Below, piece by piece: positions 1 through 39,136 of a stretch of 64,000 nucleotides of DNA. Source of the DNA: Candidatus Omnitrophota bacterium. GTDB lineage: Bacteria > Omnitrophota > Gorgyraeia > Gorgyraeales > Gorgyraeaceae. The DNA is taken from positions 22,400 to 86,399 of the forward strand of contig JBDRCN010000045.1 in assembly GCA_043821705.1 (NCBI GenBank), given 5' to 3'. The translations under genes and the position numbers were made by a program. The notes beneath the pieces were generated by a model. It did no database searches, was not told the DNA's origin, and worked only from the letters and a program-made list of their open reading frames with translations. Position 1 is the first letter of the stretch, and each line of letters starts with the position of its first letter.

Positions 1-3000
1 ATCTAACTCTACATTAAATGTACCCATAAAACTGCCGGCTGTATTAAAAACTGAGACTATATATTCTTTAAATATAGTGGAAGGATCCGGAAGAATATCC
101 ACGTTATTAACGTAATCAAGTATTATATCACCCTCTGAAACCTCAAAGTTTGGATCTTTTACTAAGCTTTCCCGAGATAATTTATCATTATCTTTATTCT
201 CCAAAAGCACTTCCTCTAATTTTTCTGCTACTTCCTGATTGCGCTTACCTCTTCCGTGCGGTATATTCCCTATAAAAATAGCACCTCCAAATTTTTCATA
301 ATATGTCCTTATATCCTCCATTTGGTCATTTATAACCTTATTCCCTCCGCAAGAAGCCACCACTACGATCGCTACACTTCTTAGATTCTTTGTATAATTC
401 AGGTAACCTATGCTATTCCCGGTATGTACTCTTGGCATAAATACATCTATAGGGATGCGTTTTTCTTCAGGAACCGGCCTTCCATTATAAGTTATTCCAT
501 TATCAAAATAATACTGAATCGTAGGTACATAATCCGTAAGAACAAAAATCTCTTGGATTCCTCCAACTGTTCTTCTTACAATATACTTTCTTCCTTTTTC
601 TATCTCTACTTTTTCCACATTGTATCTTAAATCTCTATACTTACTAGCGGCGATATCTATCCAAGGTTCCAATGGCCCACGGTCAAATACAATCAGCATC
701 GTCAGCTTCTTATCACTAAATATATCTTCTGTTGGAACCATTTTTTCTTTTATCCCCATATCCTTTATAGCATTAGACATGTCTATAGCATCTTGCGTGA
801 TAAATCTGCCGTCAAACCTTGCAAAAATAGATGCAATCGAAGCTACAGGTATAGGATCGCCTGTTCTTTTATACTCTTTATAGTATTTTTTATATTTAGA
901 AACAATGACCTTTTCTATTTCCCTCTGATAACTATCTGGGACATTATCGCTAAATATAAGATCAAGCGGCCTTTTGAGCCTATTCACATTGGCAGCTATT
1001 TTTTCCATGTCATCTAACGGCCTTTCTATGGGTGAAATAAAATACTCTTCATTCTTATCAAATACTTCTACGAAATGGCCATAGTCCAACAAGCTCATAA
1101 GAAAATCATAAGAGTATGCCCTATTTGGATCAATAGTATTATCTTGGAAAAAGCCCTGATTATCTTTTATGTGTTTTTCGTATACTGCTTCAATGGTTGT
1201 TGGGTAAAGGTGGTCTTTGCCTAGCGCCATTAAATAATACGCAGAATTATTGCTAAGATTTTTTACAAAGGTTTCTCTTATGTTATCGCTTTCATGCTCA
1301 GTTAATGTAAACTGCCTGACATGTAAAACATTCATCCATATAGATATCTTTTCTAAAACCTTTCTTAAATCAATTTCTTTAATATCCTGGGCGTTTTTAG
1401 TGAATTCATTTAGTCTTACAGCAATCTCTTTACCAAGCTGGGCTTCATTTCTGCACTTTTTTAAATCAATACCCAATGTTGCTATTAAATAGTACATATC
1501 AGGAAACGTAAAACGTTCTAACTGAGAGCCCATATAAGACTGTAGTTGGATATTATCAATATCAGTTAAAGTTAAATTGCTGTATTTTACTATCAGGTAA
1601 TGGCCTTTCGTAGGGAAGGACTTTACGTCTTTAAAAAACTCTGGATTGGTCTTATAAAAATCTACTATTAAATTCGATAAATAGTGTTGTGAACGCCTTA
1701 GATCTACTATGGTTTCATCCCCTAAAGTAGCTATACAAGCCTTAAATATATATTTTTTATCTTCTTCTAGTAATCCTTGAATATTATTAATAGATTTCAC
1801 CCTGTGAAATGCAATAACTGATCCATAATCACCTTTTTTAATGTTTGATATTGCTGCCCTGACAAAATCTTCGGCTAAATCATCCTTCTTTAACTCTAAT
1901 GCATATATAATTCCAGATGAATGATCAGGATCATATTTAAAAAGATCTATAGTAGCATTCACAATTATTTCTTTTACTTCTTTATTTAATTCCATATTTT
2001 GTCTTTTAAACTTCTGCAGCACCTCTTTCAATTTAGACAAACTTTTTATATTAGCTATAATGGATTTAAAAACAACTATCTTTTCTTTCTGAGATATTTC
2101 GATATTAGACAAATTTAGGATCAAAAGAGCTGTTTCAGGATCTTTATTATTACATAAGCCCACAACAGTCTTTGTAACCATATTCTTAGTCCTAGAGTCG
2201 AACCCGCCTGATTGAATAGTCTCATTTTCAAAAAGGGCTATTATAGCTTTTGTATCTCCAGTTTTACTTATACCTCTTATGATTTTATTCTTTTCCTCTG
2301 ATGTTATATCTCCTAGATCTATATCAGGCAATATTCCATATATCCAGTAGGATCCCTCAGTAGTCTCTTTCGAAGTATTCAATATATCTATAAAGGTAAA
2401 TAGCAGATCTATTTTTTCTTCTGGGCCAAGTTCATTATAAATCCGCTTCAAGATAAGAAATACGCCTTTTGTTGCTTTATCCGTAGATGTGCTCTTTAAA
2501 AAACGCATAGAAACTGAATAAAGCCTCTTTCTAAGAGGTTCCGGCATTGTGCCTAAATCATATTTTGCGTTAATAGACGATAATGCTAATTCATAAGTTC
2601 CATTAGTTAAATTAGGGGCCTCTAGGATCTCTAGCATAGATAAAACTATTTTTTCTCTATTTGATTTTATATGAGCAATATTCTGCATAATTTTATCAAA
2701 CACGTCTTCATTTAATCCTTCATCACCCTGCCGTACACTAGACAAGGCTGTTAGAATATCTGCATCAAGATTCTCAGAAGCATTTGTTATACGAACATAT
2801 TTTCTTATCTGACTTATGGTATAAAGCTTTCTATTGTCGATCTTCGGATTATTTAACGCAGCTCTAAGATTGGATATAAGATCTCCTTTCATCTGGTTAG
2901 TAATCATATGTTTACTAGCTCCGTAGAAAATCTCTCGCAGGGCAACTATTAAAACACTTCCCAGTGCAGCATACTGAATACTAGAAATATTTGTATTTTC

Positions 3001-6000
3001 AAGGCCCTTGATCATAGTTGATATCATATCCGTATCTATTATTTTCTTATTTTCAATTAGGCTATTTATAAGAAGATTGCCTGCTGTCTTATAGAAATCA
3101 TCGCTTCTTCTTCTATCGCTAGCTAATTCATTTACTATAGCTTTTATCGCGACTTTGTTGTTCTTCAGATTGTCTCTACCAGTAATTTTATTTCCGGTAA
3201 CTATTGCTACGACGCCTACGGTGAGATTTCTGTTAATATCCTCTAAGATAACAACTGTTTGTACGTTACCACGGTCTTCAATAATGCAATTTTTGCCTTC
3301 TTTTAGAATTATTTCTTCTCCAGTTTTACTATCTTTAAGTTCTATTATCTCAGTTTCAATATCAACTGCTCCGTCATTAAGATTTGCTGTAGCATACCCT
3401 ATCACTCCAGAAACAATATAATTCCCAAGCTCATCATCTATTTGAGGCTGTGTTTCGTCAGGGATTAGGGAGCCAGTGTCTTTTTCTTCATCTAGTTCAT
3501 TAAGTTTTTCTTCTATCTCTATCTTTTTCTTCTTAAAAAATTCTTTAGCCGCATCTGAGGATTCATTATCATCAATAGCTTCATTTATTATCTCAAGAGC
3601 TTTATTGTAATTCTCTTTTGTTTCTTCGCTACCAATCTTATTTAGTTTCTCCAGATATTTAGCTCTATGTTTCAATTGTTCTTTAAATACTTCTATAAAG
3701 ACTTTTCCTTTTTCTTCAATTTTACTAATAGCCTCTCTAGTCTCTTCATTGTATAGATCCTTTAATTCTTCAAATTCTTCATGGCCTTCCTGTATTAATA
3801 GATATTCATAACCTAGATCCTTTTGATATAAGCTAAATCCAAAAGCAACTACTTTATTAGTCTTATCTGTTGCAACATAAAAAACACTCTTCTCTCTAAT
3901 GATGTAGTTTACGCCACCACCCTTTTCATCTATCAAATATACCTCTGGGTCACTTAATGGAGCATAACCATCTTCTTCAGAATAAAAATATGCACTATTA
4001 TCTACTCCAACTTTATCCATATCCCATGAAAAGAGATTATCGCTACAATAACGGAATAATCCAAAAAGCGCAGTATAGCTTTCAATTTTTCTATCACCAT
4101 ATAGCCAATGATGATCACCTTTTTCATCTTTTAATGGACTTGATTCTATCAGAACAGGTCCTTTTTCTAATATTTTATCTAATTTTTTCTTTAGAAGTCT
4201 TTCTTCTGGTAATGTTTTGACTCTTTTTATCATCTCGCCTTTAGGCTGCTGTAATTTTTCAATGTCCTCTTTTGTTATTTCTTTATCCAATAATTTTTCT
4301 ACCAACTCTTTGCTTGTGTAATCTTCAACCGGTTTTCCTTCCATAACAGGAACTATCGTATTGTAATATTTTGGATAGTTGACAGGATCTCTGCCTTGCA
4401 AATATAGAATATCTTTAAACTGTTCCAGAGGCAATTTTTTAATATTCTCAGCGCCATCAAGTCCTATGGAATCATAATAAGTGACCTCATTTGTCTCTTT
4501 GCTAAACGATGTGATATGGACTGAATGAGGTCCATGGTTATCAATTATCAGTATCATGCCGTATTTTTGGATATTCGTGTCCGCAAGCCTCTCCTCAAGG
4601 GTCACCCTTCCCTTTTCCTTGTATGAAAGGGTTTCTTCCATTTCGAACCTTACATCACTGCCGTAAAGCTCTGCCTGCTGGTTCATATAATCCCTCAGCT
4701 TATCAAAGGGAAATAAACTTTGATCGGAAGAATAAGTTATATTTGCTGCATAAATATCAATATCTCCATATGTACTTAGCCCGTTGTTTTTTTCAACATC
4801 CTTTAAAATACCAATCTTATCGAACATTGAGAGTGCAGCAAATATTGTGCAAGGTAAAGACAGGTCAAAAGGACCTTGCGCATTATAATGAATATTTGGA
4901 TATTTTGTATCATTTGACGGTTCCGCCTCAGTGGGTGGATCGTATACTGTCGGCCTTGTTTGTTCATCTCCTTTGGTCTGGTGTTGGACTAGGATATTAT
5001 TGATTGCTTCTCCTAGGCGAACTATCTTCACATCATATTTCCCATCCTCATTAAGCGTAAGTTCTAGCCTGTCTTCTTTCTTAAGAGGTTCTTTTTCTCC
5101 TGGTATATAGACTCTGTCTTTTCCGATTTTATATACTAATTTTCCATTTATAGATTCTTTATCTAGTTTTATTACATCATCTCCTATTATAAGCTCTCTG
5201 GCTTCTTCGTTAGAAGCAAGGCTAAGGACTTTTATACCCTTATCTACAGTGCCACTCATATCAGCCAGGCTTATGCCAGAGATAGTGGCAGTGAGATCGT
5301 TAGAAGGCGCAGTAAATGCTATTTTATATATTGACTCTTTATCCGGGGTGATCTCTATGCCATTTCTTGCTTCAAATACCACTTCACCATCTTCATCTAA
5401 TATGTCTTTTTTGACTGTAATAGTCCTCTTGCCTGTCATCTTATCCCACGTAATCTCAGAATTTGATTCATTGAAGCTAACAGTAATGCCATTCATTCTT
5501 AAATTTATCTCTTTATCTGAGATCATCTTCACTTCTCCCACGCCTCCACCACCAAATGTTACAGGCATATAGCCTTCATCAGGAACAGTTTCAGGTGTAT
5601 AATTATCACCTATAGGCACGCCAGACATAATCTCAGTTCCTAACGACGAAGGAGATTGGATGTTTTGATCTAATTCAGGCCTAGACATTATTGACTCAGT
5701 GTCGCGTTGTTCAGGTTCTTTGCTTTCTGCAATACTGCCTTTTCTAACAACTTCTATACTAAACTTCCCATCACCTTTAGGAGTTAGTTCTAACTGATTT
5801 CCACGATAAACCTTGACTTGTCCTAATATATTTATTCCTTCTTCTGGGATGTTTTTGAAGGTAAGTATTATAGACCCATCAGCTTGCGGCTCGCTTAGAT
5901 CTACCTTATCTCCTATAATAAATGCCTGGGCTTCGCCATTAGAAAGGGTAAAGGTAATCTCTTTTACTCCAAAGAAACTCTCTACATCATCTATATCAGC

Positions 6001-27000: not shown

Positions 27001-30000
27001 AGTTAAACGAGCTTCTTTAGTCTGAAACTTTTCTTCTACTTCTATAATAAAAGCTGTTTGACGATCTATTGTGCCCTTATTATCTTCTACAATATTTATT
27101 TTTATATTACCCTTTTCTGCTATTGAAATGATCTTATTTTTAAAGTCTTCTACTCCTGAAGGAAAGTCGTATACTACCAGTATTCTGCCGCCTGGCTTAA
27201 CTACTCTAAGCATTTCTCTTATACAGGCATCTATCTTATCCTGGCCACCCTGTTCTTTAAGCCAAGTAAACAACTCTGTTACGCTTAATTTATCTACGCT
27301 GCTAGTCTCTATCTGAGACATATTAGATGCATCACCATGTATAATTTCAGCCTTATCAGAAATAGGATGCATATCGTTAGGCACAAGGCCCCAGGTAAAG
27401 AGCTCTCTTAAAGCTAACGAACCAGAAGCCAAAGACCCTTTCTCATTCAGAAGATTAAAAATTATATCGCTACCTTGAATTTCTTCCAATTGTAAGAAAT
27501 TTTTCCAATTGCTTAAAAAATATTTAGCAAGCATCACATTAGATTCTGAAATATCAAGATAAATTGCTTTTTCAACATTAAACATATTAGCTGCTAATAA
27601 AGTATATAGCCCTGAACCTCCTGCTAGATCAAGATAGACTTCTCCTTCATCGAGTTCCAGCATACTAAATACACTAGCTGCGCTATGAGTACGTGTATCC
27701 CTAACTTGATTTAATGGATTTTCTGTATATAGTTCAAATCTTTTTATCATCAGATCATTGAACCAGCTAAATTTATCAAATACGTCTTGCTTAATATCTA
27801 AAATATTAACTGGGGTAATGTTAGAATAATTTTTAGACTTCATAGTTTTGCCTATTTCAATCCACATGGATTTTTCTACTACTGCAGGGACAACCTCTCC
27901 ATCAACTATTCTATTTTTCATCTTATTTTGTATATAATCATCCGTTAAATCTGGATCGCCTACAGAGATCCTTATAAAATCCTCAAAAGAAATCTCAGGA
28001 TAGAGAGATCTTATTATCAGCATTGGTGTTAAGAATGCTTCTCTTTCTTGTAGATCCCTGACATATCCATCTGCACCAATAACAGATGTAGGCTTTTCAC
28101 CTCTATTACTTTGTTCAACATGGGTCAATTCATGAAATGCTACATTGATATTGTAATCTCCTTCCACAAGAACTGACAGAGGGAGATTAAAATTGCCTTC
28201 TATATTAAGAATAGTTTTTACAGCTTCCCATGTATTAGAAGATTGTTCTGATACAGCAAATGCTCTATGGGTAGGTTCTATAGTCCCTTTTGGAAGCTCT
28301 TTTATCAGTTCTTCTTTTTCTTCTTGAGTAATAATTACGATCTGGGTATTTTGTGTATTATCCATAAAAACAGCGTTCAATAAAGCTTGAGCTTCTGCTG
28401 TTTTTTCTGCTGGGATAATCTCCCCCATAATACCTGGCAAAGAACTTACTCTTCTGGAAGGTTTTGGCGTAAGGGTTTCTTCAACAGCTACTATGCCTGT
28501 ATCAAATTCTTTCTTAGACGAAGAGCTTATTTCCCCGCTTGCGCCATCAATCTTTGCATACTTGGTCTCATTCTTCTCTTTATATTTAAATATAATATCT
28601 CCATTGCTGGAGATGGCTATATCCTTATTGCCTTTCATCTTTTCTGGGCTTGTCTTGACCAACTCAATCATAGTCTTTCTTATACGATTAAACCCATCCG
28701 ATATCTTAAAATCTTTCTCATCTTTTCCATAAAGCTTTGCTAACTGAGGTGCGACCTGCTTATTATACAGAGCTATCATCTCCTTATCAGCTGTTGTAAG
28801 GATGTTCCTTAGCTTATCAGTCATGCTAGATATAAGCTCATCTATAGGCTTACGCTTACCTGAAAGAAGGAATTTATAGTTTTCTTCATCTGTTTCTTGG
28901 GATGAATAAGGAGAGATCACAACATATGAATATCCACTTTCTTTAAGGAGTTTTGTAAGGCCTCTTGTATGAAAACCTCCTGAAACAAGTGCAGCTACTT
29001 TTGCCCTTCTTTTATTTATCTCGCTTGTGGCATTATCATACATCGTATTATCACGCTGATAAGCAAGATCATAGAACTTCTCAAGCGGAGAGAATTTATC
29101 GTCTATAATTGAAGCGTCATAATTTATCGGATAAGTTATGGAGTATTTTTTAAGGCCTTTTTCTATGAATCTCTTAAAAAATGCCATTCTAAACCCATCT
29201 TTATCTGCAAAATATCTATCAAGCTCTTCATTGGATATCTTCAGATTAAAGAAGCCCTCTAAAAATGTGATATTTCGTATGGCCTTTGTAAGGATCAATT
29301 GATCATTATGTGTCGAGATACTGTTCTTAAGATCAAATGAGAGTTCTTCTATTTCACGGAAAAGTTTTAGTGAATCGAGGGAATTGACTTTTGTCAGATA
29401 ATCAACGAAGTGTAAGAGGTTTGGATATTTACTTAACTCTTCCTCTTTTAAGTGTCTCCTGGATAATTCATCTAGATAGCTATAGAAAGAAAATGGGGAG
29501 ATCTTCTTATCTTTAAAGAGAGAAAGCTGAGCAACTAGCTTTTCTATACTAGAATCATCTCTTTTAGACATTAAAGCCCTCTGCAGGCCTTCCAGTATCC
29601 CCTGGGACTCCCCCATCACCTTTTCCCGATCTACTTCTTTTTCTAAAGCCATGCTTTTTCGTAAAAGCGCTATATTTTGGAACTTCTCTTCGTCCAGTGT
29701 TTCATTAAAGTTCCATAGATAATCTAGATATTCATTTGTCTCTATGGAACTATTCTGATAAGAAACTTCTTTTGAATCTAGCTCTAATAACTGTGCAGAA
29801 TATATATGGGTCTTTAATCTATCCAATGCATTTTTAATATTTGAGATCAATGCTAGAGATGGTAGGTTGAACTTCATGACCCTGTTAAATTCGATTATAT
29901 TTTCAAAATATATCTCTTTAGTCTCCACACCCCATATTGCCAGGTCAGGATACTTAGTAATAGAGAGATATTCTTCTCCTGTCAGCTCGCCTGAATCAAT

Positions 30001-30555
30001 AAAAAGACGCGCTGTCTTTTCTCTGATCTGGGCATCCGGAAAACTCGACACACTAGAAGTATCGACCTCACCTTCAGCGCCTTCAGAACAGACTAGATCT
30101 AAATTATAATCTTTTATTAAGATCTCAAGAATGGATGCAAGATTAAGCTCTGCCTCAGGATTAGCATGGAGATCTTGGATATGGACAATAAGAGGTTTTT
30201 TTTCTGCTCCTTCTACCCTAGGAGCTTCATAGACTTCAATTACCTTACCTAAGCTATCTGGGATATATATATTAGATAGATCTTTTAATATATCTTTCTT
30301 TATTTTAGCAGCTATATGGGTCCTATCTGTATTTCTGCTGTCTTGGGGTTTCTTTTTATCAGAAAATATCTCTTTTTTCTGATTTATAGTATCTATCCTT
30401 TCTTTTTGGATAGCTTCATAATTAGGGCGTTTATTTTTAAATAAACTCCTATTGGAGGGTGCAGGATAGCATACACTTGTAAAGAAAAATGTATGCACTA
30501 ATACAAGAGAGATTATCTTCTTATATATATTATTTCCATGCCCAAAGCTTCCCAT
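1..30555 (-). CDS. Giant multidomain surface/secreted protein, at least 10,185 aa, 3' end beyond the window. Mosaic of DUF4157-like zincin + SAM-MTase modules, HATPase_c, transglutaminase-like, HExxH, CHAT-like, papain-like and beta-barrel-like regions, plus many internal repeats.
   Basis: By-eye translation of the reverse complement finds no in-frame stop from ATG 30555..30553 down to base 1; several blocks were spot-checked. ATG is preceded by AAGAGG 8 nt upstream, and an in-frame TGA lies 18 codons further upstream. The N-terminus MGSFGHGNNIYKKIISLVLVHTFFFTSVCYPAPS is signal/anchor-like. The ORF track lists no long ORF on either strand across 30 kb, as expected if one edge-truncated ORF occupies it. 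Confidence 0.85.
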   Translation of the reverse strand, partial: MGSFGHGNNIYKKIISLVLVHTFFFTSVCYPAPSNRSLFKNKRPNYEAIQKERIDTINQKKEIFSDKKKPQDSRNTDRTHIAAKIKKDILKDLSNIYIPDSLGKVIEVYEAPRVEGAEKKPLIVHIQDLHANPEAELNLASILEILIKDYNLDLVCSEGAEGEVDTSSVSSFPDAQIREKTARLFIDSGELTGEEYLSITKYPDLAIWGVETKEIYFENIIEFNRVMKFNLPSLALISNIKNALDRLKTHIYSAQLLELDSKEVSYQNSSIETNEYLDYLWNFNETLDEEKFQNIALLRKSMALEKEVDREKVMGESQGILEGLQRALMSKRDDSSIEKLVAQLSLFKDKKISPFSFYSYLDELSRRHLKEEELSKYPNLLHFVDYLTKVNSLDSLKLFREIEELSFDLKNSISTHNDQLILTKAIRNITFLEGFFNLKISNEELDRYFADKDGFRMAFFKRFIEKGLKKYSITYPINYDASIIDDKFSPLEKFYDLAYQRDNTMYDNATSEINKRRAKVAALVSGGFHTRGLTKLLKESGYSYVVISPYSSQETDEENYKFLLSGKRKPIDELISSMTDKLRNILTTADKEMIALYNKQVAPQLAKLYGKDEKDFKISDGFNRIRKTMIELVKTSPEKMKGNKDIAISSNGDIIFKYKEKNETKYAKIDGASGEISSSSKKEFDTGIVAVEETLTPKPSRRVSSLPGIMGEIIPAEKTAEAQALLNAVFMDNTQNTQIVIITQEEKEELIKELPKGTIEPTHRAFAVSEQSSNTWEAVKTILNIEGNFNLPLSVLVEGDYNINVAFHELTHVEQSNRGEKPTSVIGADGYVRDLQEREAFLTPMLIIRSLYPEISFEDFIRISVGDPDLTDDYIQNKMKNRIVDGEVVPAVVEKSMWIEIGKTMKSKNYSNITPVNILDIKQDVFDKFSWFNDLMIKRFELYTENPLNQVRDTRTHSAASVFSMLELDEGEVYLDLAGGSGLYTLLAANMFNVEKAIYLDISESNVMLAKYFLSNWKNFLQLEEIQGSDIIFNLLNEKGSLASGSLALRELFTWGLVPNDMHPISDKAEIIHGDASNMSQIETSSVDKLSVTELFTWLKEQGGQDKIDACIREMLRVVKPGGRILVVYDFPSGVEDFKNKIISIAEKGNIKINIVEDNKGTIDRQTAFIIEVEEKFQTKEARLTEQAMNLALDGDFEESLKLIKDILLSGEDYDINEVSGILEACPAGMHIAATYLNIIRKSNNDLSLIKEKVGLLAPISSMLDNEEFLKTYIALRSMEHNGTIYDIKNNFNPALNSISEFTYGKDPDQIITALDEINKDITDIVSSYNDLAKSAPIDASKELEIGVENTWQNSLNDIFEKTKIIYNKVEELENYLVSQESSDYVIAALDLLRKDIKAPVQENINVLNERLDWLGGTLKKEPTDLNALVNDLANKMLKDFETKGVTLTLNLSSIPMTEVNQKMILCVLSNILTNNKQLSEDLGIKNVTITTKLSEDKKSIVLEIYNDGAGFPEDGLEQEEGQTYQRAFGLNWSKRKGGTGLGLAESRLYVTDEHNGQIWIESEKDKGSTFKITIPIIGDKSELQNTINDLPEQNPSSNTYNILTICGDGQLRGPEMDIVLSILASKNNISGVNVSSRGYLPVEDIGSLSQGEDISLDKLESIIQYIEIDDDLKEDLKNKKSAYPIVRGDLENASLIIAADEGVKRFIIGRNKHIKGLESKIFTISDLLKQEDESIRKDLEGKVKVKNSYSIDDLLKIFDGEFIDALKKAVPISEDESRRDDFIARDYIDEQNIPKQVLINLDISDESLNAQVLVISDDEKNKALKDPDLKDWLILEHGYAAGGFIIEKENEQSFNKFKEALGIKGNFKVPFIVSIGSSLRMTSIVHELAHIEQSNRGDKANIPDTMLGYMASLDEREAYLTSILIYLSLYPEASLYDFLKASYKLPKDDMSDRDMDMSMRLRIVKNSPGPSILSEKMWSYVTDLIGDEKITEDNIGRIKKDVMRQFSWFDNLMVEAFDRSSIDNGYNFIKWSRDYCASDVMDLLDVSKEDAYCDAGMGMSPDAVAAYFSYNAKEVFYIDISETNIQFTTALFSAFNNLRKFNDVMYTTYENFLLNASPLYVPELLKELYAWGLTLGAIPDNVNIIENDGDSMKQIEPNSITKMSISGFFEHLKGDREIDDCIKDILRIVKPKGRILLVHNFNKDEDKLKYFKKRFNSVARKEKIDISIEKDNDTGMLVIDVEPEPSKQAPKTKTSTEEISAPKSKDTSSIDAPEDDAARLSEDTFTFTFGGGGGALFGTAMLLANISFDVTFDKDGNIIKVSQQESRKTDSQKAPIQVPVLFDGRHFIQGGFYSLKNGELEEFLEEEFVSRLAPNEVAIVALPSRQKEAIKKHLEEEGIKLPIFLLSIEDSEYIKSLIVDVDNRAALKGEGLKLDLNEGSKGDLGGYGEENQPETNIEKVISGAIEELGYSLEEQSEIVEQISSFYNNYELEKIKDMPRLERINSLSKIIKNAVKSDRGDYPALLTKVFNEEHADKGYIGSANCVGSTQLFVILGRLAGLSIDPIEVTWSCGVQEGVYHVASLVKLSDNKSIIVDISNPRVGISEPFPLEGSGGLYKKIEPGQYLQLKESHFKKKLHRKIRIGTPEALLSSYILYARSTSVGLKKESEKIDFLKKAIEKDPGSVWGYANLAELYKHNIIYGENLEPDYILETIDLFKKALEKDPGFITASSELGDIYLYLGDRTVKQPLDPESMGYVFSAGKILNLPEDLDPLTCLKNSAIYYKKAFNFAYYGEGPRSGMESMAKKAIILAGLIEKEKNKLNTSGIVRKGEEFKLYVWNQPEVDIDEDWAVSFKEGAKINKKTLWPEENEIGFVKERNQYVKVKYEKDKIIFVPTDIIEEESDSGSLMPDEIKPLIPGFTVEITAIDDVESFFGVKEITFTYNNEAQVFIIGDKVDLSEPQADGTIIVTFKNIPEEGINILGQEQFYSGDQLILTLKKDGKSYEVKRALDMEETRTVSTVKKLKKPRRSYLPPEPIKYVYNTVLKNKKPFYLLRELEDTTRVKLYNGIDVDIGNRDEDGERIVAFLKDITLDGREYSSGEKISLFPSKGKGKAIEGTLELEEIESIIQPQEDELVKDILTAKLKPKKIQDIPVISTGQTLTKDLSNRSKPIEAEFRGSYSKIEHEINNTKNPETRKLAQEEFERNLPKLQEGVEYILTVKFVKEMPGEYWQVEMKELPPKPLKLTGTLSELKYKIEKIEDPRIKRYLKNNTPGSERENYVLSITYSNGRPTVQFKEISKGSNKDKIIIRDLTSTDSLYKGKTAYLSIDLTNMEVSGTFSEIRRKIDRLSDEDLKEYLAGALDRAKDLTKKENIKYILYFDVEESTPQNIGSEYTTSIDIRKLSPGFLRIEGDVSEIKTKIRNVKDTDLKRRAERILNDTPGLRRNVSYILTIDVRETEKESIYEGKIKEFPPLRFTHFSIYQGYPREFKKDIEELGDPRVKKYLHEILINARGLKSDKVYNFTLKIKETESQKIGTDYTKASMIEEKDAESIVIMGTVLELKTSIANIKNTALKEFARELLKESKFIKDDIEYTLYVGTTREGIKGEINEKYPESIKITGTLSEIEAKVKKLKNPRLRKEAESTIDRYWMKHDLRWVLTIDVQIKKEKDEYSFKSKVEPINKVDLSKNFTIVFDGKKYSLVANKDIIWRKNIKNIDRKKYVKVREVVNGKKKRTIWVKKTSIDTAVKYLRKKDLEDTYFKISELYEGVYVPIYIYQDIISSKKKKGTTTPEPKESDSGSIMPRDEPTHPIIDIEQFFPLTNIRLFTDLASVDELTIYGSTGIEVDGKPYPNCIKEIETRAGPNGEEIKVIEFTKDTTIDTSKGREVFQAGTQLELILSEDGAGYRVKSIGMSFQGSSHMIDSEIVNIKDPEIKKLAKEKFEKNLSKLQKGVEYILSVKFVKEMKGEYWQVEMKELPPDRISFTGTLSELKTQIDNIEDPRMKQYAKAKLDYFVNNALSMGDKIGLEEGVKYSFGIVVTDEDISYTVPFLLDEGEVGVNCAMQTFGDKIASTPQEIVFDYKKRLYAWIDEAESATATRSGTISRIRRNARSIKSPLLRKMTLDLIKDRSIFVASDDDNIIHTLTVKIRKIKFEHTVVPIWSLTYDIVPQLPELINFNGTLDRISAQVQKIKYSSMKDAALELIDKERKEGKKQNVKEYKLSVIPEFEKKGKKIKGIIYKMAFKKTMKSIRFLETYPGRKVLARSFGFDVEIAISTNGNMNVFIGEEYGMYKSSKYGHYMSDLARYKDDNFVCCDISTSFPSLPADFTGCKLELYVKEVPDSFHYKLDKRLNEIGISFITSDGQEIFHPSFVINVSADGWKKIYIPNDLDMTSVKEIRFYSGKKYGSQKLSNKGIGQIYITHIKLTPLKTLVPVEKSIVPKDAGSLIPDETQPHIDTKQILPLTNITLFTDLASVDELTRYGSTGIEVDGKPYPNCIKEVKTRIGAEGRITVIEFTKDTTIEAEFFPKYTQLELISEDGVTFKVTWEELLDKIEFDQKAIVGSLFIDNKKFVLKAIEKNPKVLEYVSDSFKDDKNIVFAAAVKNTFTIRFASDRLKNDKEFILDIVVQAPSIIYHMEFRGDKEFVSKAVEKNSMAIEFASKRLQEDADIVLIIKKKINSHVRDISSKFGFEVDIPRFFDALVTFLRGSSNRWLISGRYKLETLERKLLEIKEALSVYPEAFLKNCITVKIVVNPYIYNMKTDKYNFSLGKWFSRIFITSTPSIHHEIFHHADSKDDYLPFHLWSNDDSSWPESLGSKDYDCDHGQINIREDQATIADSFFGRHSFFELLTRCRESSILLAKVERITSCKLDLETYRFTRLYTEEELEELYDDGYEYYAKWSMDEEGKIWMDHNYWNNIIHGDSEKKEEPQKPQKIFEENKDVEPEKKPFINEINIKGFFDYEHLYPKIDVGIVNPLGDSWSPIKISSNTFQLSTHESNMFMASSASTMDKKGEYATDMGLSLWGYVPLNYRSWVDDLIKTNEYSSLRSDSYLGMMLDAYRAYPGLFGIKDMSYGAGISTNIFINPSLGTSSWYAKPSVGIYKSFKQDYIDNLFISGYALLNGFINPSIIDDPAGYLSEFKIGLNADFEIADDISIGLSGNVSRFYRKWFGVGAMNIDFSLSKDILLKANAWGRTPFTSSGLNYSIDPEDQYQWGGGISLNTDYGEANFNFMKIGEFWQPDGDGHTLDRIEAGISLKLGKILGGLIGGSLLNNLISTDNINVSYLHRIDDYNVIDKPSIEEDSEIISEGYIIPEGSGQEFFYQVTKDGIKVTSSDGEEFTSESTNLVTALVPFIFGAKKAMTPIITFLDKDRNVLGVGNLGDMIDFWTRSGLDSEGAPTNTKLLEVLKRIQEKKTPEPEKEPDSGSLVPDGIIQPQPETEQIFPFSNIIPFVDLASIDKLTPIDSYTGIEVDGKPYPNCIKEVKTRIGAEGRITIVEFTKDTTIEAEFFPKYTQLGLVLQEDGIGYKVTELIKSDLSKDYIIVYDGQKHSLIHKDDVEYELDGWSEDKSLYVLGVRMVNGKIKERVLIKKSSIDSATDLIKKQDIAKSPYEISELKYQVYVSKEMKYKIDRGSAKEKEPQKTKDITGRSDIPVDEDFDFIVSPSTEGILSPSSAGISLSERDTEKEKSYYMELARDDPKRAMEDMDKYIDKPWAKEIFKVMLIEGKIVGDTFIVKPFLAKWISKSWAPEILDLIYVFNENLSRHYKIFIDQPYGLEFLESKVIFAPFEAIDGGSKLIFGGNDRGQLTDFIFATLTRNSDFIEVLKRSKNPIVKKLCGLYDWGVKNVPLKSQEDALWTTLLLDKIVKNNLSFEKAYNIAKDPSLLLKNIIEIKRQPDYLGSFSITNGLKMICLRAIWDINYLHDSSDTIRFRSVETFDSETLYTLMVYGENEVFTSTFNGLFTRMLNKMKKEGLTAKTLFKKVDYNKFRVMIKLCASYNRLNEFLNTVTKDEKIHLLKRFVRIKSDDKDLLSQAVIIADTFSMIQDKEVLKVLQETIKEEYHKVLKKDNKEARVIYGLLSGLFSEKAVLSTDWFKKMSKKYKLQDITKLPTKNLFNEDEVSIQRFYSYNDEDGKASYNSLLNQYKGKKAWQIKDKDSYTLIISRPTNGKRIELYVNKPEFEDKGQAAIDKALKGKKVHIEVHMGHSYHVNKTIKRINPEAELVVLRSCGGYNEISDILDKTPQAHIISTKGTGTMYVNDPLLYLLNTEILKGKDISWPAFWEKAEDRLGHNGAFGNYIAPHKNLGVMFIKAYKRLLREEESKESDSGSIMPDETHPHIDTKQILPLINITFFTDLASVDGLTIYGSTGIEVDGKSYPNCIKEVDNPDGEEIIAVEFTKETYIDTPQGKEFFPTGTQLELIRSEDGVRYKVRSINRRFQGSYSSIKDKINNIKDARMRKEAEKVFNKKLPKLQKGVEYVLDIKLTKTMKGEEWQVEMKEIPPQTLKLTGTLSELRVKIENIQDPRVKEYAEETLDHCLKEIRPLLEAGVTYTIGILIGLNLDLKGKAIDSPGPDFTPWYSNEEWERSKVQWLNSHGSPSMILEPTEPCDIGFKYTQLRWINETNIPDKIELTGTFSEIKAKAKKIKSPLIRALFFEHFYKHLNIIDAEYDLSIISARGDNGEFNGISMEWRSSLSSETHYEDIKSYLTSKDTSSVTLVDAYRKTLERIKRRLNSKNITIDEAVKLKKEKDIIERNIVIEEINKCYNEAKLNATGLDYKEAANAYKRASKIIEERLNNKTISADEKKDLKKYKTKAEIAILKAKINGLIKEINDLGIFDTLLGKRYPIKQEALKKIDKLLEYREIKGSERKELKELRKLMKGKLPSPKDIKRRFEEYRIQKSIDNTKFAKEKKVKYRTANKDFTQPLSPIKVDLSRYYTIVFDGKKYSLVPNTAVKAKWSKGYISANKVVNGKKGKKVWVKKSKIDDAKYYETKDLIRYSPYRISKVYKGVYIPAYISMLMLISPNPLEILSDDWTNRELFIKAFGLEAFGFIQDKIDKAASSDEGLTQKTLIKLIWQLKEFVKKEQPDTGSLMPEKDADRIDLPSTDLTSVEAEISGISLADIDDVESFFGVKEITFTYNNEAQAFIIGDKVDVSEPQADGTIIVTFRENGVNILGLGTFYPENQLKLTLKDDGKYSVEVIRGSDKEEKARLNYFKEEIYLQVLDIENLGIEVSLLGISDELDFEAIDEWLKTDRTTPGRDEIRLEYLYQKVHAVKEQLLRYPKIFLKNSNFKKIAINPKYVGHSSNQEVTNYIKSRFWPTTMTLSNYQYFHHELFHIMDFNDDYIPYIWTNDDSSWPESLELEDCAGGHGQGSFKEDQAAIAESLFNFSYPLFSEILEKCKKSKVLLAKVERMTSCKLDLETYRFTRLYTEEELEELYDDGYEYYAKWSMDENGKIWMDHNYWNNIIDGDSEKKEEPQKPQKILEESKDRKLEKHAAPEPEEEPKHSYLPPEPIKYIYNTVLKNKKPFYLLRELEDMTKVKLYNGIDVDIGNRDEDGERIVTFLKDITLDGREYSSGEKISLFPSKGKGKTRKGVLEPEEIKSITQLQKDKLVKDISMELEEELEEDPIEIFTEQILAKDLLSSSKDIETEFRGSYSEIKHEIGNTEDAEIKKVAKEEFEKNLPKLQEGVEYILTVKFVKEMPGESWQVEMKELPPKPLKLTGTLAELRVKIEALEDSRMRQYAKEYLDYYKVSKRLFYNAEEGIKYEFGIMTLDKGCPNNIQESSGRDGSYGMSEGWVKFELRNAGYKIAEAPEEIGMDFKKRQRGWLNELEIPEERFIGTITEIKEQAKKIKSPLLRHYFFRYVSISFAFSRENLKYDLTLRAKKELEKHPDTFYSWRFYSKCSIIPEQKIFTGSLKEIGEQVKKLPHPMMKKSVLDLVNKTRAKAGGKDFRYTLIASYECKDKKDKWLLRCESTIKNVAPLIFIEKATMRNIGSIVSAVGRMNIFIDGVSQYYSAGGIYSEYNYVDFVFDKPLDLTGCELQLDVRKTPSGTNFKSKGRLKEIAISFVTSDGKEIFDSSFKIDVSTDGIKKIYMPSNLDLTSVTKIKMYTGKRYGENEILLNEPDCTINIKKMKLIPVSTDKKEGQPKKNSDTGLIIPEPDSGQTFPFPQHSYPTGITATISGISLADIDDVESFFGVKEITFTLSNGEAQAFIIGDKVDLSEPQADGSIILTFKNIPEEGINILGQVKVYRGNQLELTPKGDGKFSIEVVRKGSIAESKEPEQRDTESIMSRPELDQNIQSPSSLGTEIMSGVPIGDNYTPETVPDEGYMPVTFGGGGVGEVKMISDKEINLRMNGITVSFNESNSEITWDKMTGKRTITVKKDILDEDGEVVFEARNGIEITPDKESIYKIAFTAPSNDLTATISGISLADMSGTVDKGIKVLSLASNEEARELIIGDDVIKLDKESINGKLVYKIGKDRVYIPGEKEPLKKEDRLELTLNEDGKYDVKIVRLGEAINNILVQHQTKGDEQTRPTVYDPPTEAEPSNDTKYPNIHYNAQGPFDLSLPCTIFAALSMFDKIGILKDVEKNNGLSTYGDIDIYAANITYSSDQSLFPFDKLRDYMNQQAELYGSDVRFEMEETLSYKEKGRVTLEERLADTNIQKYGMILIIDNHGPHSVHITSFSKETNEVTYYDSIGLDGAENIKKLPLEQFKDILYLQGRDPVNYPKYYNTIVPVMEGKPVEDYTSKELVEKLLDKEITKEDIEKLQQPKGEMIKRVKTLPEERLLKKKLDKILEKGPVLIESSPLKDEKGDHHWLYGDRKIESYTALFGLFRYCSDNLFSWDMDKVGVDNSAYFYSEEDGYAPLSDPEVYLIDEKGGGVNYIIREKSVFYVATDKTNKVVAFGFSLYQKDLGYEYLLIQEGHEEFEELKDLYNEETREAISKIEEKGKVFIEVFKEQLKHRAKYLEKLNKIGSEETKENYNKALEIINEAIDDNESSDAAKEFFKKKKIEIEEKLNELDEEKDTGSLIPDETQPQIDDELGNYIVSGVIGYATANLNDGAVDIETEIIELKDSKTGEEIILKEGKNCIIEDRGNVQTVVILEDINRNLTVGVVAIVTGNKITGRDNLKNNKVAIKAIVNELASDRRRSDDFYKTAGNLLINSLIENKKIIDTDMISTMIKGLENTNISSIQYAALGSVLIVALREIFYGASKHMITNQMKGDLISNLRAALNNPKIDNRKLYTISQIRKYVRITNASENLDADILTALSSVRQGDEGLNEDVFDKIMQNIAHIKSNREKIVLSMLEILEAPNLTNGTYELALSSINAKYDLGTMPEPLRKRLYSVSMRFLKSTSTDKATKGVFLILKRIYNELGPEEKIDLLFTFIDILNTSKETTEGSYWIYGILPDIDLGDITSEEKNKIIRGISKTGDTKAIIALFENETIQSGGFDSRTKNMVTKTVVGLCNNKDPETALLILNLSNIEISQKEKIVVFKSIIANIKSLSKLKEVLQKFKRQNMELNKEVKEIIVNATIDLFKYDPDHSSGIIYALELKKDDLAEDFVRAAISNIKKGDYGSVIAFHRVKSINNIQGLLEEDKKYIFKACIATLGDETIVDLRRSQHYLSNLIVDFYKTNPEFFKDVKSFPTKGHYLIVKYSNLTLTDIDNIQLQSYMGSQLERFTFPDMYYLIATLGIDLKKCRNEAQLGKEIAVRLNEFTKNAQDIKEIDLRKVLEKISIWMNVLHVRQFTLTEHESDNIRETFVKNLSNNSAYYLMALGKDHLYPTTIEAVYEKHIKDNQGFFQDNTIDPNRAYSYDFLMSLLDYGHFVEVFDKNEEYFISPIERPLDDMEKIAANVNRLKRPLDLIFSDNVPDSYQREIEKVIVSKYKKYYKEYKRTGDPIPVASIASIFARFDGRFITQDAIDMSNAIKDMGIKEKMVPTEDIFSDKKLTMLIVFDRGPLEPWIDIAASKYRDLRYNVEKVEIEKGRKYIVRRTVGGIQEIFVLTDYVPTIQYYFDNGITYNGRPVPEEKRIPIDVFMPRVHTGNSIGYLNYTKNLRSVAIVVVASCGGNKVINDQMEDIRTYYEKFGGAIFIGNIPHGRGKRNQEVAEKLEEVLLENKDNDKLSRESLVKDPNFEVSEGDIILDYVNNVDILPDPSTIFKEYIVSVFNTAGSFMGTFNVELD
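250..650 (-). other. CHAT / caspase-like His-Cys domain #2 of the giant protein
   Basis: RVHTGNSIGY...AIVVVASCGGNKV (about 340..425) mirrors domain #1. Confidence 0.35.
4380..4860 (-). other. Papain-fold (C39-like) cysteine peptidase-like domain of the giant protein
   Basis: SLPCTIFAALSMF (about 4801..4855), then GPHSVHITSF (about 4503..4527), then VTYYDSIG. Confidence 0.35.
8130..8720 (-). other. HExxH zincin-like module, copy B
   Basis: QYFHHELFHIMDFNDDY...DDSSWPES at about 8488..8577. Its tail at 8125..8340 is about 93% nt-identical to 15735..15960. Confidence 0.45.
11700..12100 (-). other. CHAT / caspase-like His-Cys domain #1 of the giant protein
   Basis: HIEVHMGHSYHVN about 30 aa before ELVVLRSCGGYNE (about 11850..11975). 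Confidence 0.4.
14650..15700 (-). other. Outer-membrane beta-barrel-like segment inside the giant protein
   Basis: Roughly 350 aa of alternating short amphipathic strands rich in G/S/N/Y, with aromatic strand ends (...AMNIDFSLSKDILLKANAW, ...NFNFMKIGEFW). Confidence 0.3.
15750..16330 (-). other. HExxH zincin-like module, copy A (duplicated roughly 200-aa module)
   Basis: IHHEIFHHADSKDDY...DDSSWPES at about 16120..16210. Module ends with a conserved ...YEYYAKWSMDE.GKIWMDHNYWNNII tail. Confidence 0.45.
22150..22650 (-). other. TPR-like repeats following the transglutaminase-like core
   Basis: KAIEKDPGSVWGYANLAELY / KALEKDPGFITASSELGDIYLYLG repeat pattern. Confidence 0.4.
22700..22960 (-). other. 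Transglutaminase-like cysteine peptidase core of the giant protein
   Basis: GSANCVGSTQLFVILGRLAGLSIDPIEV...YHVASLV...IVDISN fits the transglutaminase-like Cys/His/Asp pattern. Encoded about 22806..22935. Confidence 0.5.
23900..24450 (-). other. Class I SAM-dependent methyltransferase-like domain #2 of the giant protein
   Basis: CDAGMGMSPDAV (about 24361..24393) and LRIVKPKGRILLVHNF (about 23951..23995). Confidence 0.45.
24800..24950 (-). other. DUF4157-like HExxH zincin domain #2 of the giant protein
   Basis: Motif SIVHELAHIEQSNRGDKA (about 24850..24900), paralogous to #1. Confidence 0.5.
25850..26200 (-). other. GHKL / HATPase_c-like ATPase domain of the giant protein
   Basis: N-box LSNILTNN, G1 box YNDGAGFP, G2 box GGTGLGLAESRLY, then GSTFKITIP. 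Confidence 0.55.
27100..27700 (-). other. Class I SAM-dependent methyltransferase-like domain #1 of the giant protein
   Basis: Motif I YLDLAGGSGLY (about 27604..27634) and LRVVKPGGRILVVYDF (about 27170..27205). Confidence 0.5.
28050..28250 (-). other. DUF4157-like HExxH zincin domain #1 of the giant protein
   Basis: Motif VAFHELTHVEQSNRGEKP, encoded around 28096..28150 (minus strand). Confidence 0.5.
30455..30555 (-). other. N-terminal signal peptide / membrane anchor of the giant protein
   Basis: Positively charged KK followed by the hydrophobic stretch IISLVLVHTFFFTSV, then CYPAPS. Confidence 0.6.
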
Positions 30556-30667
30556 GCAAACGCCTCTTCTGATAATGATCCGGATATGCCTCCATATTGT
30601 CCTTCGTCATGGGAAAAGGGTTATCCAATAACGGAGGCAATATCCAGAGATCCTTCCTGTTTAAAGC

Positions 30668-30704
30668 AGAAAAGCCAGGCATTGAGATAATCCCTGGCTT
30701 TTCA
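30668..30704. terminator. Stem-loop (9-bp stem) between dcd and the giant gene, with a T-run on the + side; possible bidirectional terminator/attenuator
   Basis: gaaaagccagg-cattgagataatc-cctggcttttc followed by attgtttttatt. Confidence 0.35.
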
Positions 30705-30849
30705 TTGTTTTTATTAGTTTTGTAGAGGCCCATGACTTATTTCCCCTATTATTAAAATCTTTTATAAACTCTAGTTAAAAGTATACACTATAAACAGGGA
30801 AATGTCAATACCGGGCTCTTTTTTTGTTTATAAAATTGTTATAACTTGT

Positions 30850-31425
30850 TTATTTAGATAGGGTTATTGTTTTTTGGGATTGGTACTTTCCTTTGCGGTC
30901 AGAGTAGGTAGTGTCACACTCTTCCTGGGACTCAAAGAATATGATCTGGGCTATGCCTTCATTAGCATATATCTTCACCTGGGAGGCTCCTGTATTGGAG
31001 ATATCCATCGTTAAGTACCCCTCCCAGCCTGGTTCTAGGGGAGTGACATTGACTATGACACCACACCTGGCATAAGTGCTCTTACCAGTACAGAGCGCTA
31101 GTACGTTCTTAGGCATCTTAAAGTACTCTAATGACCTGGCTAATACAAATGAATTCGGGGGAATAATGCAATATTCCCCCGAATGATCTTCAAATAGATC
31201 CTTATTTATATTCTTAGGATCAAGTATGTCTTCTTTCTTGCCTCTAAACAATTTAAACTCATTTGAGAGTCTTATGTCATATCCGAAGCTAGAAGGTCCA
31301 TAAGATATCTTACCATCTCTTACTTGCTTCATCTGGAATGGCTTTATAATATCTTCTTCCAAAGCCATTTTTTTTATCCAGGTATCTGGTTTTATTGACA
31401 TAGTTTTAACACTTTGAATATCCAC
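30850..31425 (-). CDS. dcd: dCTP deaminase
   Basis: [14 protein letters not shown]...[36 protein letters not shown]. The true start is probably the internal Met MSIKPDTW at about 31401, giving an ATGA overlap with nrdJ. Confidence 0.8.
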
Positions 31426-36404: not shown

Positions 36405-37235
36405 CTAAATGATCTCTACACTTTCTTTTGGAAGCCACCCTCTTAAGTCCTTTGAAAGATCGATCTCGTACCAATTTTTTATTTCTTTTATTATTCGGAG
36501 CTTTGTTCCTTCGTGCAGTGTGAATTGCTTAAGATAATCTTCATTCGGCCCGCTTCTTACATCAACCTCTTCAGAAATTATAACTGCTTCTTTTGTAAAA
36601 TGCTCTGCTGCGATCTTCGAAAATAAAAACGTCAGAGAAAAGCTCAATAAAGCTCCTAATGATAATATAGTATAAAATATAAATTTCCTTTTTTCAACTA
36701 ATTTTATAGAAAAAATCAGAAGCACCATTATTATAAGATATACGATACTGTTAAAGAACGTCAATTCATTGATATTCATCCTGTCATATAGGTATAGGAC
36801 TGAATTTATTATAAAACCTCTGTCAGGCAGGTCCAATCTATCTACCTGCCTTGTCCTTGCAAGTTTTAGGTTTAATTTTATATCCCTGTCTCTAGGAGAG
36901 ATCCTGGTAGCTCTTTCATAATTTAGAATAGCTTTTCCTATTTCTTCCAATTTAAAATATGTATTGCCAAGATTGTAATAAACTTCAGCATTTACCTTAC
37001 CAGTGTCGACAAGCCTTCCATAAATAGAAGCTGCATTTTTATAATCCTGGTCCTGGTAAGCGCGATTTGCTTTTTCAAATATCTCTTCCGGAGTCTCTGC
37101 AAACAGAACATTTCCTGAAATAAATATACTGATCAGCAATAATATTATTATTTTTATCTTATGCATAACTTTTTTCTTCCTGCCCGCCGAAGCCAGACTT
37201 TCGATTCGCCTTTCGTAAAGGTGCAGGAGGGTCAT
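36405..37235 (-). CDS. batE: BatE-like protein: signal peptide, TPR repeats and a C-terminal SH3b domain
   Basis: TPR pattern AEVYYNLGNTYFKLEEIGKAILNYERA. C-terminal SH3-like VDVRSGPNEDY...NWYEIDL...RGWL. The likely true start is MHKIKIII at about 37168. Confidence 0.6.
   Translation of the reverse strand: MTLLHLYERRIESLASAGRKKKVMHKIKIIILLLISIFISGNVLFAETPEEIFEKANRAYQDQDYKNAASIYGRLVDTGKVNAEVYYNLGNTYFKLEEIGKAILNYERATRISPRDRDIKLNLKLARTRQVDRLDLPDRGFIINSVLYLYDRMNINELTFFNSIVYLIIMVLLIFSIKLVEKRKFIFYTILSLGALLSFSLTFLFSKIAAEHFTKEAVIISEEVDVRSGPNEDYLKQFTLHEGTKLRIIKEIKNWYEIDLSKDLRGWLPKESVEII
37177..37235 (-). promoter_or_regulatory. Copy A of a conserved roughly 57-nt element (CCCTCC...CCTTTACGAA...CTGGCT.CGG.GGGCAG), in the batD-batE junction
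   Basis: About 75% identical to copy B. Lies 10 nt upstream of the probable batE ATG. Confidence 0.45.
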
Positions 37236-39100: not shown

Positions 39101-39136
39101 CTTGTGTCATGTGTCCTGTGACTTGCAACTTGAATA

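Follow-up and report, generated by a model that had tools for sequence, protein, structure and literature searches.

A giant gene of at least 10,185 codons from Candidatus Omnitrophota with a conserved N-terminal head, a rare His/Cys domain and a recurrent linker motif

In the Omnitrophota, proteins of ≥10,000 amino acids (aa) are encoded by 94% of complete genomes, with 5,761 of them catalogued; 46 genes exceed 90 kb among 1,873 genomes, and the longest protein reported was at first of 85,804 aa and has since been surpassed by one of 147,155 aa (bioRxiv 10.1101/2023.11.21.568195; Nielsen & Lui 2026, bioRxiv 10.64898/2026.06.07.730766). According to the same two preprints, 80% of the sequence clusters that these giants form at 30% identity are singletons, and the commonest domain co-occurrence, ‘module 1’, is that of a PF08241 methyltransferase with a PF02518 HATPase_c. 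A signal peptide and/or transmembrane (TM) helices are present in 94%, and a topology with a signal peptide only (SP-only) accounts for 8.6-13%. No cleavage points are known for any of these proteins (West-Roberts et al. 2023, bioRxiv 10.1101/2023.11.21.568195). The subject here is a minus-strand gene that runs off the edge of a 64,000-nucleotide stretch of a Candidatus Omnitrophota contig (GenBank assembly GCA_043821705.1, contig JBDRCN010000045.1, positions 22,400 to 86,399; this whole stretch is ‘the window’, and its coordinates are used throughout). The preferred reading, to which a probability of roughly 0.7 is given, is that it is a real and single Omnitrophota-type giant gene of this known class, whose product would be exported and act at the envelope or surface as a multi-enzyme platform.

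A preliminary description of this DNA had claimed a single giant open reading frame (ORF) of at least 10,185 codons that starts at 30555, runs past the window edge, cannot be due to chance and encodes more than 1.1 MDa. All of this is borne out by a machine six-frame scan of the window. The minus-strand frame is without a stop codon from 30606 to 1, that is for 30,606 nt or 10,202 codons, whereas the base composition (GC 0.36) leads to an expectation of one stop per ~13 codons, ~794 in a frame of this length, and the log10 of the probability of encountering none is approximately -359. The runner-up among stop-free stretches in all six frames is 4,854 nt. The first ATG is exactly at 30555, with GAAGAGG 7 nt upstream of it, and from there the ORF (1..30555, minus strand) extends for 10,185 codons to the window edge, where the frame is still open and the C-terminus lies beyond. 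The visible part of the protein has a computed mass of 1,161,539 Da (1.16 MDa) and a pI of 5.35. Absence of the ORF from the accompanying ORF track had been ascribed solely to the open edge, and that list does skip frames that run off the sequence.

The gene is a real, single and selected coding gene. GC content, GC skew and codon usage are even throughout the frame, with GC at third codon positions (GC3) at 0.26-0.29 in all 1,000-codon blocks and relative synonymous codon usage correlating at r=0.91 with that of the 19 other genes in the window. Internal paralogous modules, of which 10 pairs were compared, have dN/dS values of 0.19-0.49, and the duplicated parts have thus evolved as protein. 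Such dispersed, internally duplicated modules account for 49% of the residues of the visible protein when it is compared with itself in overlapping chunks (whole-chain self-BLAST culls contained high-scoring segment pairs and so hides the repeats). The non-duplicated half (aa 1-716, 1160-1790, 2234-2895, 4946-5394, 5621-6281 and 8516-10185) is interleaved with the repeats, and the duplicated half arose via intragenic cassette duplication. An in-frame stop or frameshift between 1 and 30555, or a chimeric assembly of repeats, had been named as findings that would undo the initial claim. The scan found no stop there, tandem arrays in the DNA of the gene are only five and all trivial, and its dispersed DNA repeats are of ≤300 nt and 61-95% identity, with no two copies identical. 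As a separate matter, the GC3 of the giant gene (0.27) is below that of its neighbors (0.35). The GC skew of the plus strand is steadily negative (-0.09 to -0.22) over window positions 1-48000, where nearly all genes are on the minus strand, and it levels off past ~48 kb, where gene orientations mix.

The parallels to the catalogued Omnitrophota proteins of ≥10,000 aa are several. Here too one ORF exceeds 10,000 codons, the DNA is AT-rich and there is an N-terminal signal. The protein is mostly Pfam-dark with scattered enzyme domains that include the Methyltransf_11 and HATPase_c combination of ‘module 1’, it has internally repeated domains without tandem arrays at the nucleotide level, and its sequence is unique, like the singletons of the catalogue. 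In contrast to most of those giants, its 10,185 aa contain a single hydrophobic segment, as in the minority SP-only class, and unlike published examples it gives no matches to SecA_DEAD, C39, S8, glycosyl-transferase, glycosyl-hydrolase, NUDIX, dockerin or TSP3. With regard to narrower types, the gene as far as it is visible falls outside both that were compared. The Archaeovorin type (West-Roberts 2023) unites SAM methylases, peptidases, NUDIX, glycosyl transferases and glycosyl hydrolases in a single chain that also has SecA_DEAD, and it has numerous TM regions in contrast to the one hydrophobic segment in the visible part here, and no glycosyl-transferase, glycosyl-hydrolase, NUDIX or SecA_DEAD domain accompanies the methyltransferase in the visible 10,185 aa; in the same 10,185 aa the Pfam search for the dockerin type yielded neither dockerin nor TSP3. 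The gene fits as a new member of the catalogued ≥10,000-aa class, in its SP-only and methyltransferase/HATPase_c group. The preliminary description had regarded genes of this size as rare and mostly confined to a few uncultivated lineages. As to lineage this holds, strong homologues being found only in uncultivated Candidatus Omnitrophota, where giants are documented; as to rarity it does not, since within that phylum such proteins are common, as the catalogue figures above attest. With the class already counted in thousands, one more giant gene is by itself unsurprising to a specialist.

The sole hydrophobic segment of the visible protein in a Kyte-Doolittle scan is aa 14-32, within a signal-peptide-like or anchor segment at aa 1-32 (30460..30555, minus strand), and the signal or anchor N-terminus initially proposed is in accord with it. 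In homologues that share the adjoining domain the N-termini have a basic n-region, an h-region that in most is of 11-14 residues, and a polar c-region ending in ...Y-A|A-P; to judge from these features, the N-termini of the family look like cleavable Sec signals. The equivalent site of the giant protein itself, CYP|AP, is atypical in having Pro at -1, and because of that Pro the giant protein may stay anchored.

Together with the signal segment, a conserved Omnitrophota head domain (aa 95-575; 28831..30273, minus strand; an alpha/beta core plus a helical insertion) makes up the first ~600 aa. With the first 1,200 aa as query, a word-index homologue search matched 42 protein clusters. Among these, the best 36 match the first ~600 aa, at 31-56% identity and 30-55% query coverage, and the source names given for them are all Candidatus Omnitrophota or Omnitrophica; the six weaker ones are 23-25% identical, and one is named Endomicrobiaceae. 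That search is not exhaustive, as its 42 homologues, all ≤2,038 aa, compare with 266 confirmed head stretches, to which the head of the giant is 46-56% identical, in a DNA scan of one genome per species. Head homologues at 44-56% identity come from genomes labelled Candidatus Omnitrophota or from metagenome-assembled genomes (MAGs) labelled uncultured Planctomycetia, and some head-bearing MAGs among the 266 stretches are labelled simply uncultured bacterium. (The Planctomycetia label, present on several head-bearing MAGs, may be a mislabel.) Paralogues within one genome number at least five in UBA10183 (e.g. L018, L020, L025, L034 and L048), at least four in KR13_S3.mb.80 and at least three in OS_PC_MetaG.mb.108.

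What follows the head is highly variable. The shortest ORFs that begin with the head are of ~500 aa and the longest exceed 3,900 aa (10-kb flanks were fetched for this, and ten of the ORFs run off their flank), and their bodies are unrelated. In some of the loci there is, as in the giant protein, an N-terminal hydrophobic segment only and the rest is Pfam-dark. In the proteins from the word-index search the bodies include phosphoglycerate kinase, FBP aldolase, UGPase/phosphoglucomutase, GlcN6P isomerase, GNAT, HTH, or HATPase with a receiver, each of these Pfam families having been seen in one head-bearing protein only. The lengths differ by source, in that nine of the word-index homologues are of 1,951-2,038 aa, the upper end for that search, while the loci from species-genome DNA include ORFs of 2,585 aa and upwards, the longest exceeding 3,900 aa; long proteins have either been overlooked by the index or been broken up in gene calling.

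From its model, the head is predicted to have the fold of the TIKI/erythromycin-esterase/ChaN-like hydrolases, with a parallel beta-sheet core flanked by helices and split by a helical insertion of ~300 aa (aa 213-516). Structural matches, with the figure for each in brackets, are 2rad (10.0), HopBA1 (9.9), a TraB protein (9.9), 2qgm (9.1), EreC (9.0), ChaN (8.6), RRSP (8.1) and PMT (7.5). Across 30-43 homologues there is little or no variation in D128-x-H130, E158, R501 and G526-G-F-H529-T, and the His-to-Glu spacing of 28 residues equals that of RRSP (H3902/E3930) and of Bcr135 (H85/E113), in both of which a 2His/2Glu site is catalytic (PMC6254334). With the fold, the catalytic-residue pattern and the spacing all shared in this way, the head is probably an active TIKI-superfamily hydrolase, a view based on fold and motif and not on profile membership. 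The head differs from the members of that superfamily (EreA-C, Bcr135/136, ChaN, TraB-PrgY, GumN, RRSP and HopBA1) in several respects. Asp replaces Glu at the first acid, the core is interrupted by the insertion, and the domain is always N-terminal, behind a signal peptide, on very large multi-domain proteins. Nor do sequence profiles connect it with a Pfam or PDB member of the TIKI/Ere/ChaN/TraB superfamily: Pfam gave nothing on the head of the giant at E<=1 or on the heads of 30 homologues at 1e-5, and a head profile run against PDB sequences returned only coiled-coil noise from misaligned variable tails. In a word search of both Omnitrophota giant-gene preprints the terms TraB and esterase were absent, and the head domain is therefore apparently not described there.

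A second family came to light near the window edge. An exhaustive HMMER search of 1.84 billion representatives with aa 9026-10185 gave 14 weak matches (best 2e-25), and these distant relatives define a domain of ~380 aa that is present twice in the giant protein, at aa ~5904-6285 and ~9690-10100. The first copy (aa 5904-6285; 11701..12846, minus strand), with a helical and an alpha/beta part, has H6202 and C6225; the second (aa 9690-10185; 1..1488, minus strand) has H10044 and C10069, and the window ends ~115 aa past its Cys. The motifs of the domain are INxLHD, D.IR, LYTSTF, IDP and H-R-G-H-S followed after ~22 aa by L-G-S-C-G-S, the His and Cys being at least 90% conserved over 15 sequences. 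In the model, strands 307-311 and 330-333 precede the conserved His and Cys, which would place these at the C-terminal ends of adjacent strands. Structural matches, again with figures in brackets, are to separases (10.7, 10.1 and 8.3), CHAT proteins (9.7 and 7.9), gingipains (7.7) and C11 peptidases (7.2-7.4); Foldseek prefers, weakly, small GTPase folds. On these structural grounds the His/Cys domain is a candidate separase/CHAT-like (clan CD) peptidase. Set against the separase (C50) and CHAT peptidases, it has G-H-S instead of H-G, a His-Cys spacing of just ~23-25 residues, and great rarity, with 14 representative clusters in the 1.84 billion. It is also without a Pfam match, none of Peptidase_C14, C50, C80, C11, C13 or CHAT being found on either copy or on seven homologues. 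The term caspase, like the two mentioned above, is absent from both preprints in a word search, and separase/CHAT-like domains are for that reason apparently not described there. A 5,611-aa protein with this domain at its aa 4724-5141 (P0045) continues into a helical region, its aa 5329-5610, that is homologous to aa 5670-5953 of the giant protein; there the helical region comes before the His/Cys domain, the order being swapped.

The third recurrent element is a short motif at domain junctions, D[ST]GS[LI][MIV]P[DE]. Copies, all on the minus strand, are at aa 2904 (21820..21846), aa 3797 (19141-19167), aa 4441 (17209-17235), aa 5421 (14269-14295), aa 6322 (11566-11592), aa 7084 (9280-9306) and aa 9026 (3454-3480), with a degenerate copy at aa 8285 (5677-5703). 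In its strict form it has six matches compared to 0.0005 in shuffles. Every copy is preceded by a Lys/Glu-rich linker, and what follows the motif is of three different kinds. At aa 9026 the resemblance to other copies is limited to 17 residues around the motif; at aa 6322 the motif is ~35 aa after the end of the first His/Cys domain. Neither the 42 head homologues nor the large ORFs of 76 related loci, 273,000 aa in all, contain it. Given this absence in relatives, its recurrence may only mark recently duplicated linker-plus-domain cassettes. It is a candidate processing site only. (Readings as a sortase, exosortase, SEA-type or Asp-Pro self-cleavage site were rejected, as LPxTG, PEP with a C-terminal helix, G|SVVV inside a folded SEA domain and D-P are absent.)

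The body has Pfam matches to HATPase_c, Methyltransf_11 (twice), TPR and DUF4116, with little else over 10,185 aa; the coordinates that follow are all minus strand. Module A1 (aa 717-1159; 27079..28407) combines an HExxH motif (aa 808) with an S-adenosylmethionine (SAM) methyltransferase (Methyltransf_11, aa ~1069-1126). Its paralogue A2 (aa 1791-2233; 23857..25185), with an HExxH at aa 1887 and a weak Methyltransf_11, aligns with it on a 443-aa diagonal at 34% aa identity with a dN/dS of 0.42. A GHKL/histidine-kinase-type ATPase lies between them (aa 1405-1580; 25816..26343; HATPase_c 2.4e-14), has N, G1 and G2 boxes and matches PDB histidine kinases down to 2.7e-10. The DHp-like stretch before it is without a HisKA Pfam match and without a His residue; aa 1160-1405 contain only two His residues, H1231 and H1281, and the surroundings of neither resemble an H-box. 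Though the N, G1 and G2 boxes are present, a canonical two-component kinase is rejected because there is no H-box. Next comes a C-x5-R region (C1607; aa 1590-1790; 25186..25788), assigned by motif only, which we take to resemble low-molecular-weight phosphatases, with no Pfam or PDB sequence support found. A low-molecular-weight phosphatase reading and a transglutaminase-like one, tried on two segments, were both set aside, neither having Pfam or PDB support.

Further along are TPR repeats (aa 2668-2743; 22327..22554; TPR_17 1.3e-8) and a first repeat-rich block (aa 2896-4600; 16756..21870) with small beta domains after junction motifs and other duplicated cassettes, among them at least eight copies of a unit beginning G-T-[LF]-S-E-[LI]-K. 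DUF4116 repeats occupy three stretches at aa ~4560-4680 (16516..16878; 5.2e-25). Module B1 (aa 4673-4945; 15721..16539) has HHEIFHH, with its HExxH at aa 4784. The second repeat-rich block (aa 6282-8515; 5011..11712) is paralogous to the first, and within its span is module B2 (aa 7212-7491; 8083..8922), a B1 paralogue (dN/dS 0.21-0.28) with HHELFH and an HExxH at aa 7329. The HExxH motifs are thus four, in two paralogous pairs (aa 808/1887 and 4784/7329). A unique stretch rich in Gly, Ser and aromatic residues at aa ~5000-5420 (14296-15558) has no Pfam match, and its alternating hydrophobic pattern is suggestive of a beta-rich or barrel-like structure.

The ‘many enzymatic-looking domains’ of the preliminary description are in part substantiated, by HATPase_c, the two Methyltransf_11 matches, the TIKI/Ere-like fold, the two His/Cys domains and the four HExxH motifs; ‘many’ is generous, as most of the 10,185 aa are without a detectable family. 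The last 5,000 aa of the visible protein have no PDB sequence match, and aa 2890-4089 and 9026-10185 gave no homologues in the (non-exhaustive) word-index search. Comparison by tblastn of the body with 76 head-bearing loci gave only generic methyltransferase and kinase similarity, and so no body orthologue is among them. By sequence comparison the body is lineage-specific and nearly orphan.

How the parts might work together can be considered in relation to the MARTX toxins, in which CPD cuts inter-domain linkers, releasing effectors. Like these, the giant protein would be a very large, exported and modular one with a TIKI-superfamily domain (RRSP in MARTX) and a clan-CD-like domain (CPD in MARTX). 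Unlike them, it has no RTX glycine-rich repeats (0 GGxGxD), its signal is N-terminal and of Sec type where that of MARTX is C-terminal and type I (the C-terminus of the giant lying beyond the window), and it is without sequence similarity to CPD or RRSP. On the preferred reading, the N-terminal signal would lead to Sec export across the inner membrane, and the exported giant would then be a platform of several enzymes, rich in proteases, that works at the envelope or on the cell surface. Such a role would fit the proposal in the literature that Omnitrophota giants serve to attach the cell to a host or to attack it; the surface or predation function suspected in the preliminary description is likewise a hypothesis from the literature. 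Its own peptidase-like domains may cut it into smaller pieces, though autoprocessing is speculative.

Several points weigh against this reading. Domains dependent on ATP and SAM are odd cargo for an exported protein, and the Pro at -1 of the signal-peptidase site is also pertinent. HExxH and C-x5-R are assigned by motif only, without Pfam or PDB support. On the visible side, the 33 kb upstream of the gene contain no type II/IV secretion, pilus or glycoside-hydrolase genes, unlike the surroundings of most published giants. The window has no taxonomic marker, and within the analysis the phylum call comes from the head family only. Finally, no copy of the contig or close relative that would confirm contiguity was found in the collections searched.

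The last point leads to the possibility that the long frame is an assembly artefact, made from several shorter genes by chimeric joining or by collapse of repeated modules. Internally duplicated modules contain about 49% of the residues, and some of the DNA repeats are 91-95% identical over 144-300 nt, enough to mislead short-read assemblers; moreover, no independent contig copy turned up, the first 60 nt of the window having no exact match in the genome and metagenome collections searched, two neighboring window proteins none in the collections searched, and the last 506 aa of the visible protein no match in a protein-level metagenome scan. However, no repeat copies are identical, the unique half of the protein interleaves with the repeats, composition, GC skew and codon usage stay even along the gene, and genes this long have been independently verified in Omnitrophota via long-read complete genomes. 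Random mis-joins would break the frame, yet it is preserved through every junction for 30.6 kb, and with the frame open across all joins a chimeric assembly is not expected; we regard it as extremely improbable. A cytoplasmic, membrane-tethered multi-enzyme scaffold, with the hydrophobic segment as an uncleaved reverse anchor (N-out, C-in), is of a different order, and is unlikely without being far-fetched. A GHKL ATP-binding domain and SAM methyltransferases suit the cytoplasm with its supply of ATP and SAM, and head-bearing paralogues carry PGK, FBP aldolase, PGM/UGPase and GlcN6P isomerase; the flank after the hydrophobic segment (R36, K40, K42, R43) is more basic than that before it (K12, K13), and Pro occupies the expected -1 cleavage position. 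Against such a scaffold, most homologues have the h-region of 11-14 residues, the polar c-region and a small -1 residue (A/T/G/S) that are the signature of a cleavable Sec signal, and the TIKI-fold relatives ChaN, TIKI and RRSP act outside the cytoplasm of the producer.

A further alternative to the preferred reading builds on autoprocessing. The giant would be a MARTX-like effector polyprotein that is exported and then cut at its conserved linker motifs by clan-CD-like and/or TIKI-like domains within the chain, and its modules would be released onto or into a host. A TIKI-fold head with an intact catalytic constellation is there along with two separase/CHAT-like His/Cys domains, the same two peptidase superfamilies that MARTX carries as RRSP and CPD. 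The junction motif recurs 6-8 times in charged linkers before its three kinds of downstream sequence, once ~35 aa past the first His/Cys domain, and self-cleavage of Omnitrophota giants has already been proposed (West-Roberts et al., bioRxiv 10.1101/2023.11.21.568195). Nevertheless, this polyprotein is very unlikely: the motif is missing from the 76 related loci and 42 head homologues and may reflect cassette duplication, there are no RTX GGxGxD repeats, C80, CHAT and C50 give no Pfam match, and the clan-CD fold call for the His/Cys domain is not decisive. A broader version, also decidedly unlikely, would have the head as a phylum-wide export and processing module on interchangeable bodies that, with the His/Cys peptidases, cuts the giant at its linkers and frees at least a dozen enzymes outside the cell, in parallel to MARTX but independently evolved. 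The exported, envelope- or surface-acting platform stays the preferred reading.

Upstream of the giant gene, a leader of ~295 nt separates it from a dCTP deaminase gene (30850-31425) and contains a 67-codon ORF (30530-30733, minus strand) with a good ribosome-binding site, AGGGGA, and a stop 25 nt within the giant ORF in a different frame. Inside this upstream ORF is a stable hairpin (30669-30703, minus strand; -23 kcal/mol, z -3.8), followed by UUUUCUGCUUU. Hairpin and upstream ORF could be a dcd terminator, an attenuator or a means of translational coupling. A promoter-like site, TTGACA-17-TATACT (30780..30808, minus strand), is ~225 nt upstream of the start codon; at 11/12 sigma-70-like positions it is a consensus match only, in a region that gives two such matches against a shuffle mean of 1.9.

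Beyond the leader, the 33 kb upstream are ordinary bacterial chromosome. The start of the dCTP deaminase gene is overlapped by 20 nt by that for an intein-containing ribonucleotide reductase of 1,605 aa (31406-36223, minus strand; Ribonuc_red_lgN/lgC plus TSCPD), whose interruptions comprise Hint_2 at aa 101-144, Intein_splicing at aa 591-1014 and two LAGLIDADG homing-endonuclease domains. Directly upstream of it is a complete BatA-D-type operon (36405-44604, minus strand) for a TPR/SH3 protein, BatD, a TPR protein, two VWA/BatA proteins, a 180-aa unknown, a DUF58 protein and a MoxR AAA ATPase. A STAND/AAA_16-type NTPase of 375 aa (51669-52796, minus strand) and a 7TM-GAF-HATPase sensor kinase (59208-61391, minus strand) are further off, the ATPase domain of the latter being unrelated in detail to that of the giant protein. 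Also encoded upstream are an M48 peptidase, a peptidoglycan-binding protein, an AddA-like helicase-nuclease, a SNF-family symporter, an FAD oxidase, a DD-carboxypeptidase and an NAD synthase. There are no tRNA or rRNA genes in the window, nor a match to any Rfam family.

The value of this locus is in the new clues that its domains give to how Omnitrophota giants are built. Two families, that of the head and that of the His/Cys domain, provide testable leads, together with the linker motif, on how giant proteins are exported and whether they are cut. The head family is a handle for finding and classifying such giants and perhaps for explaining their export or processing, and the rare separase/CHAT-like His/Cys family, present twice in one chain, is a lead worth keeping. 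The junction motif, sharply conserved, supplies concrete candidate cleavage points, otherwise lacking in the literature; were the broader export-and-processing proposal true, its linkers would be the first such candidates for an Omnitrophota giant. If autoprocessing were shown, the question of whether megadalton chains act whole or in pieces would become directly testable.

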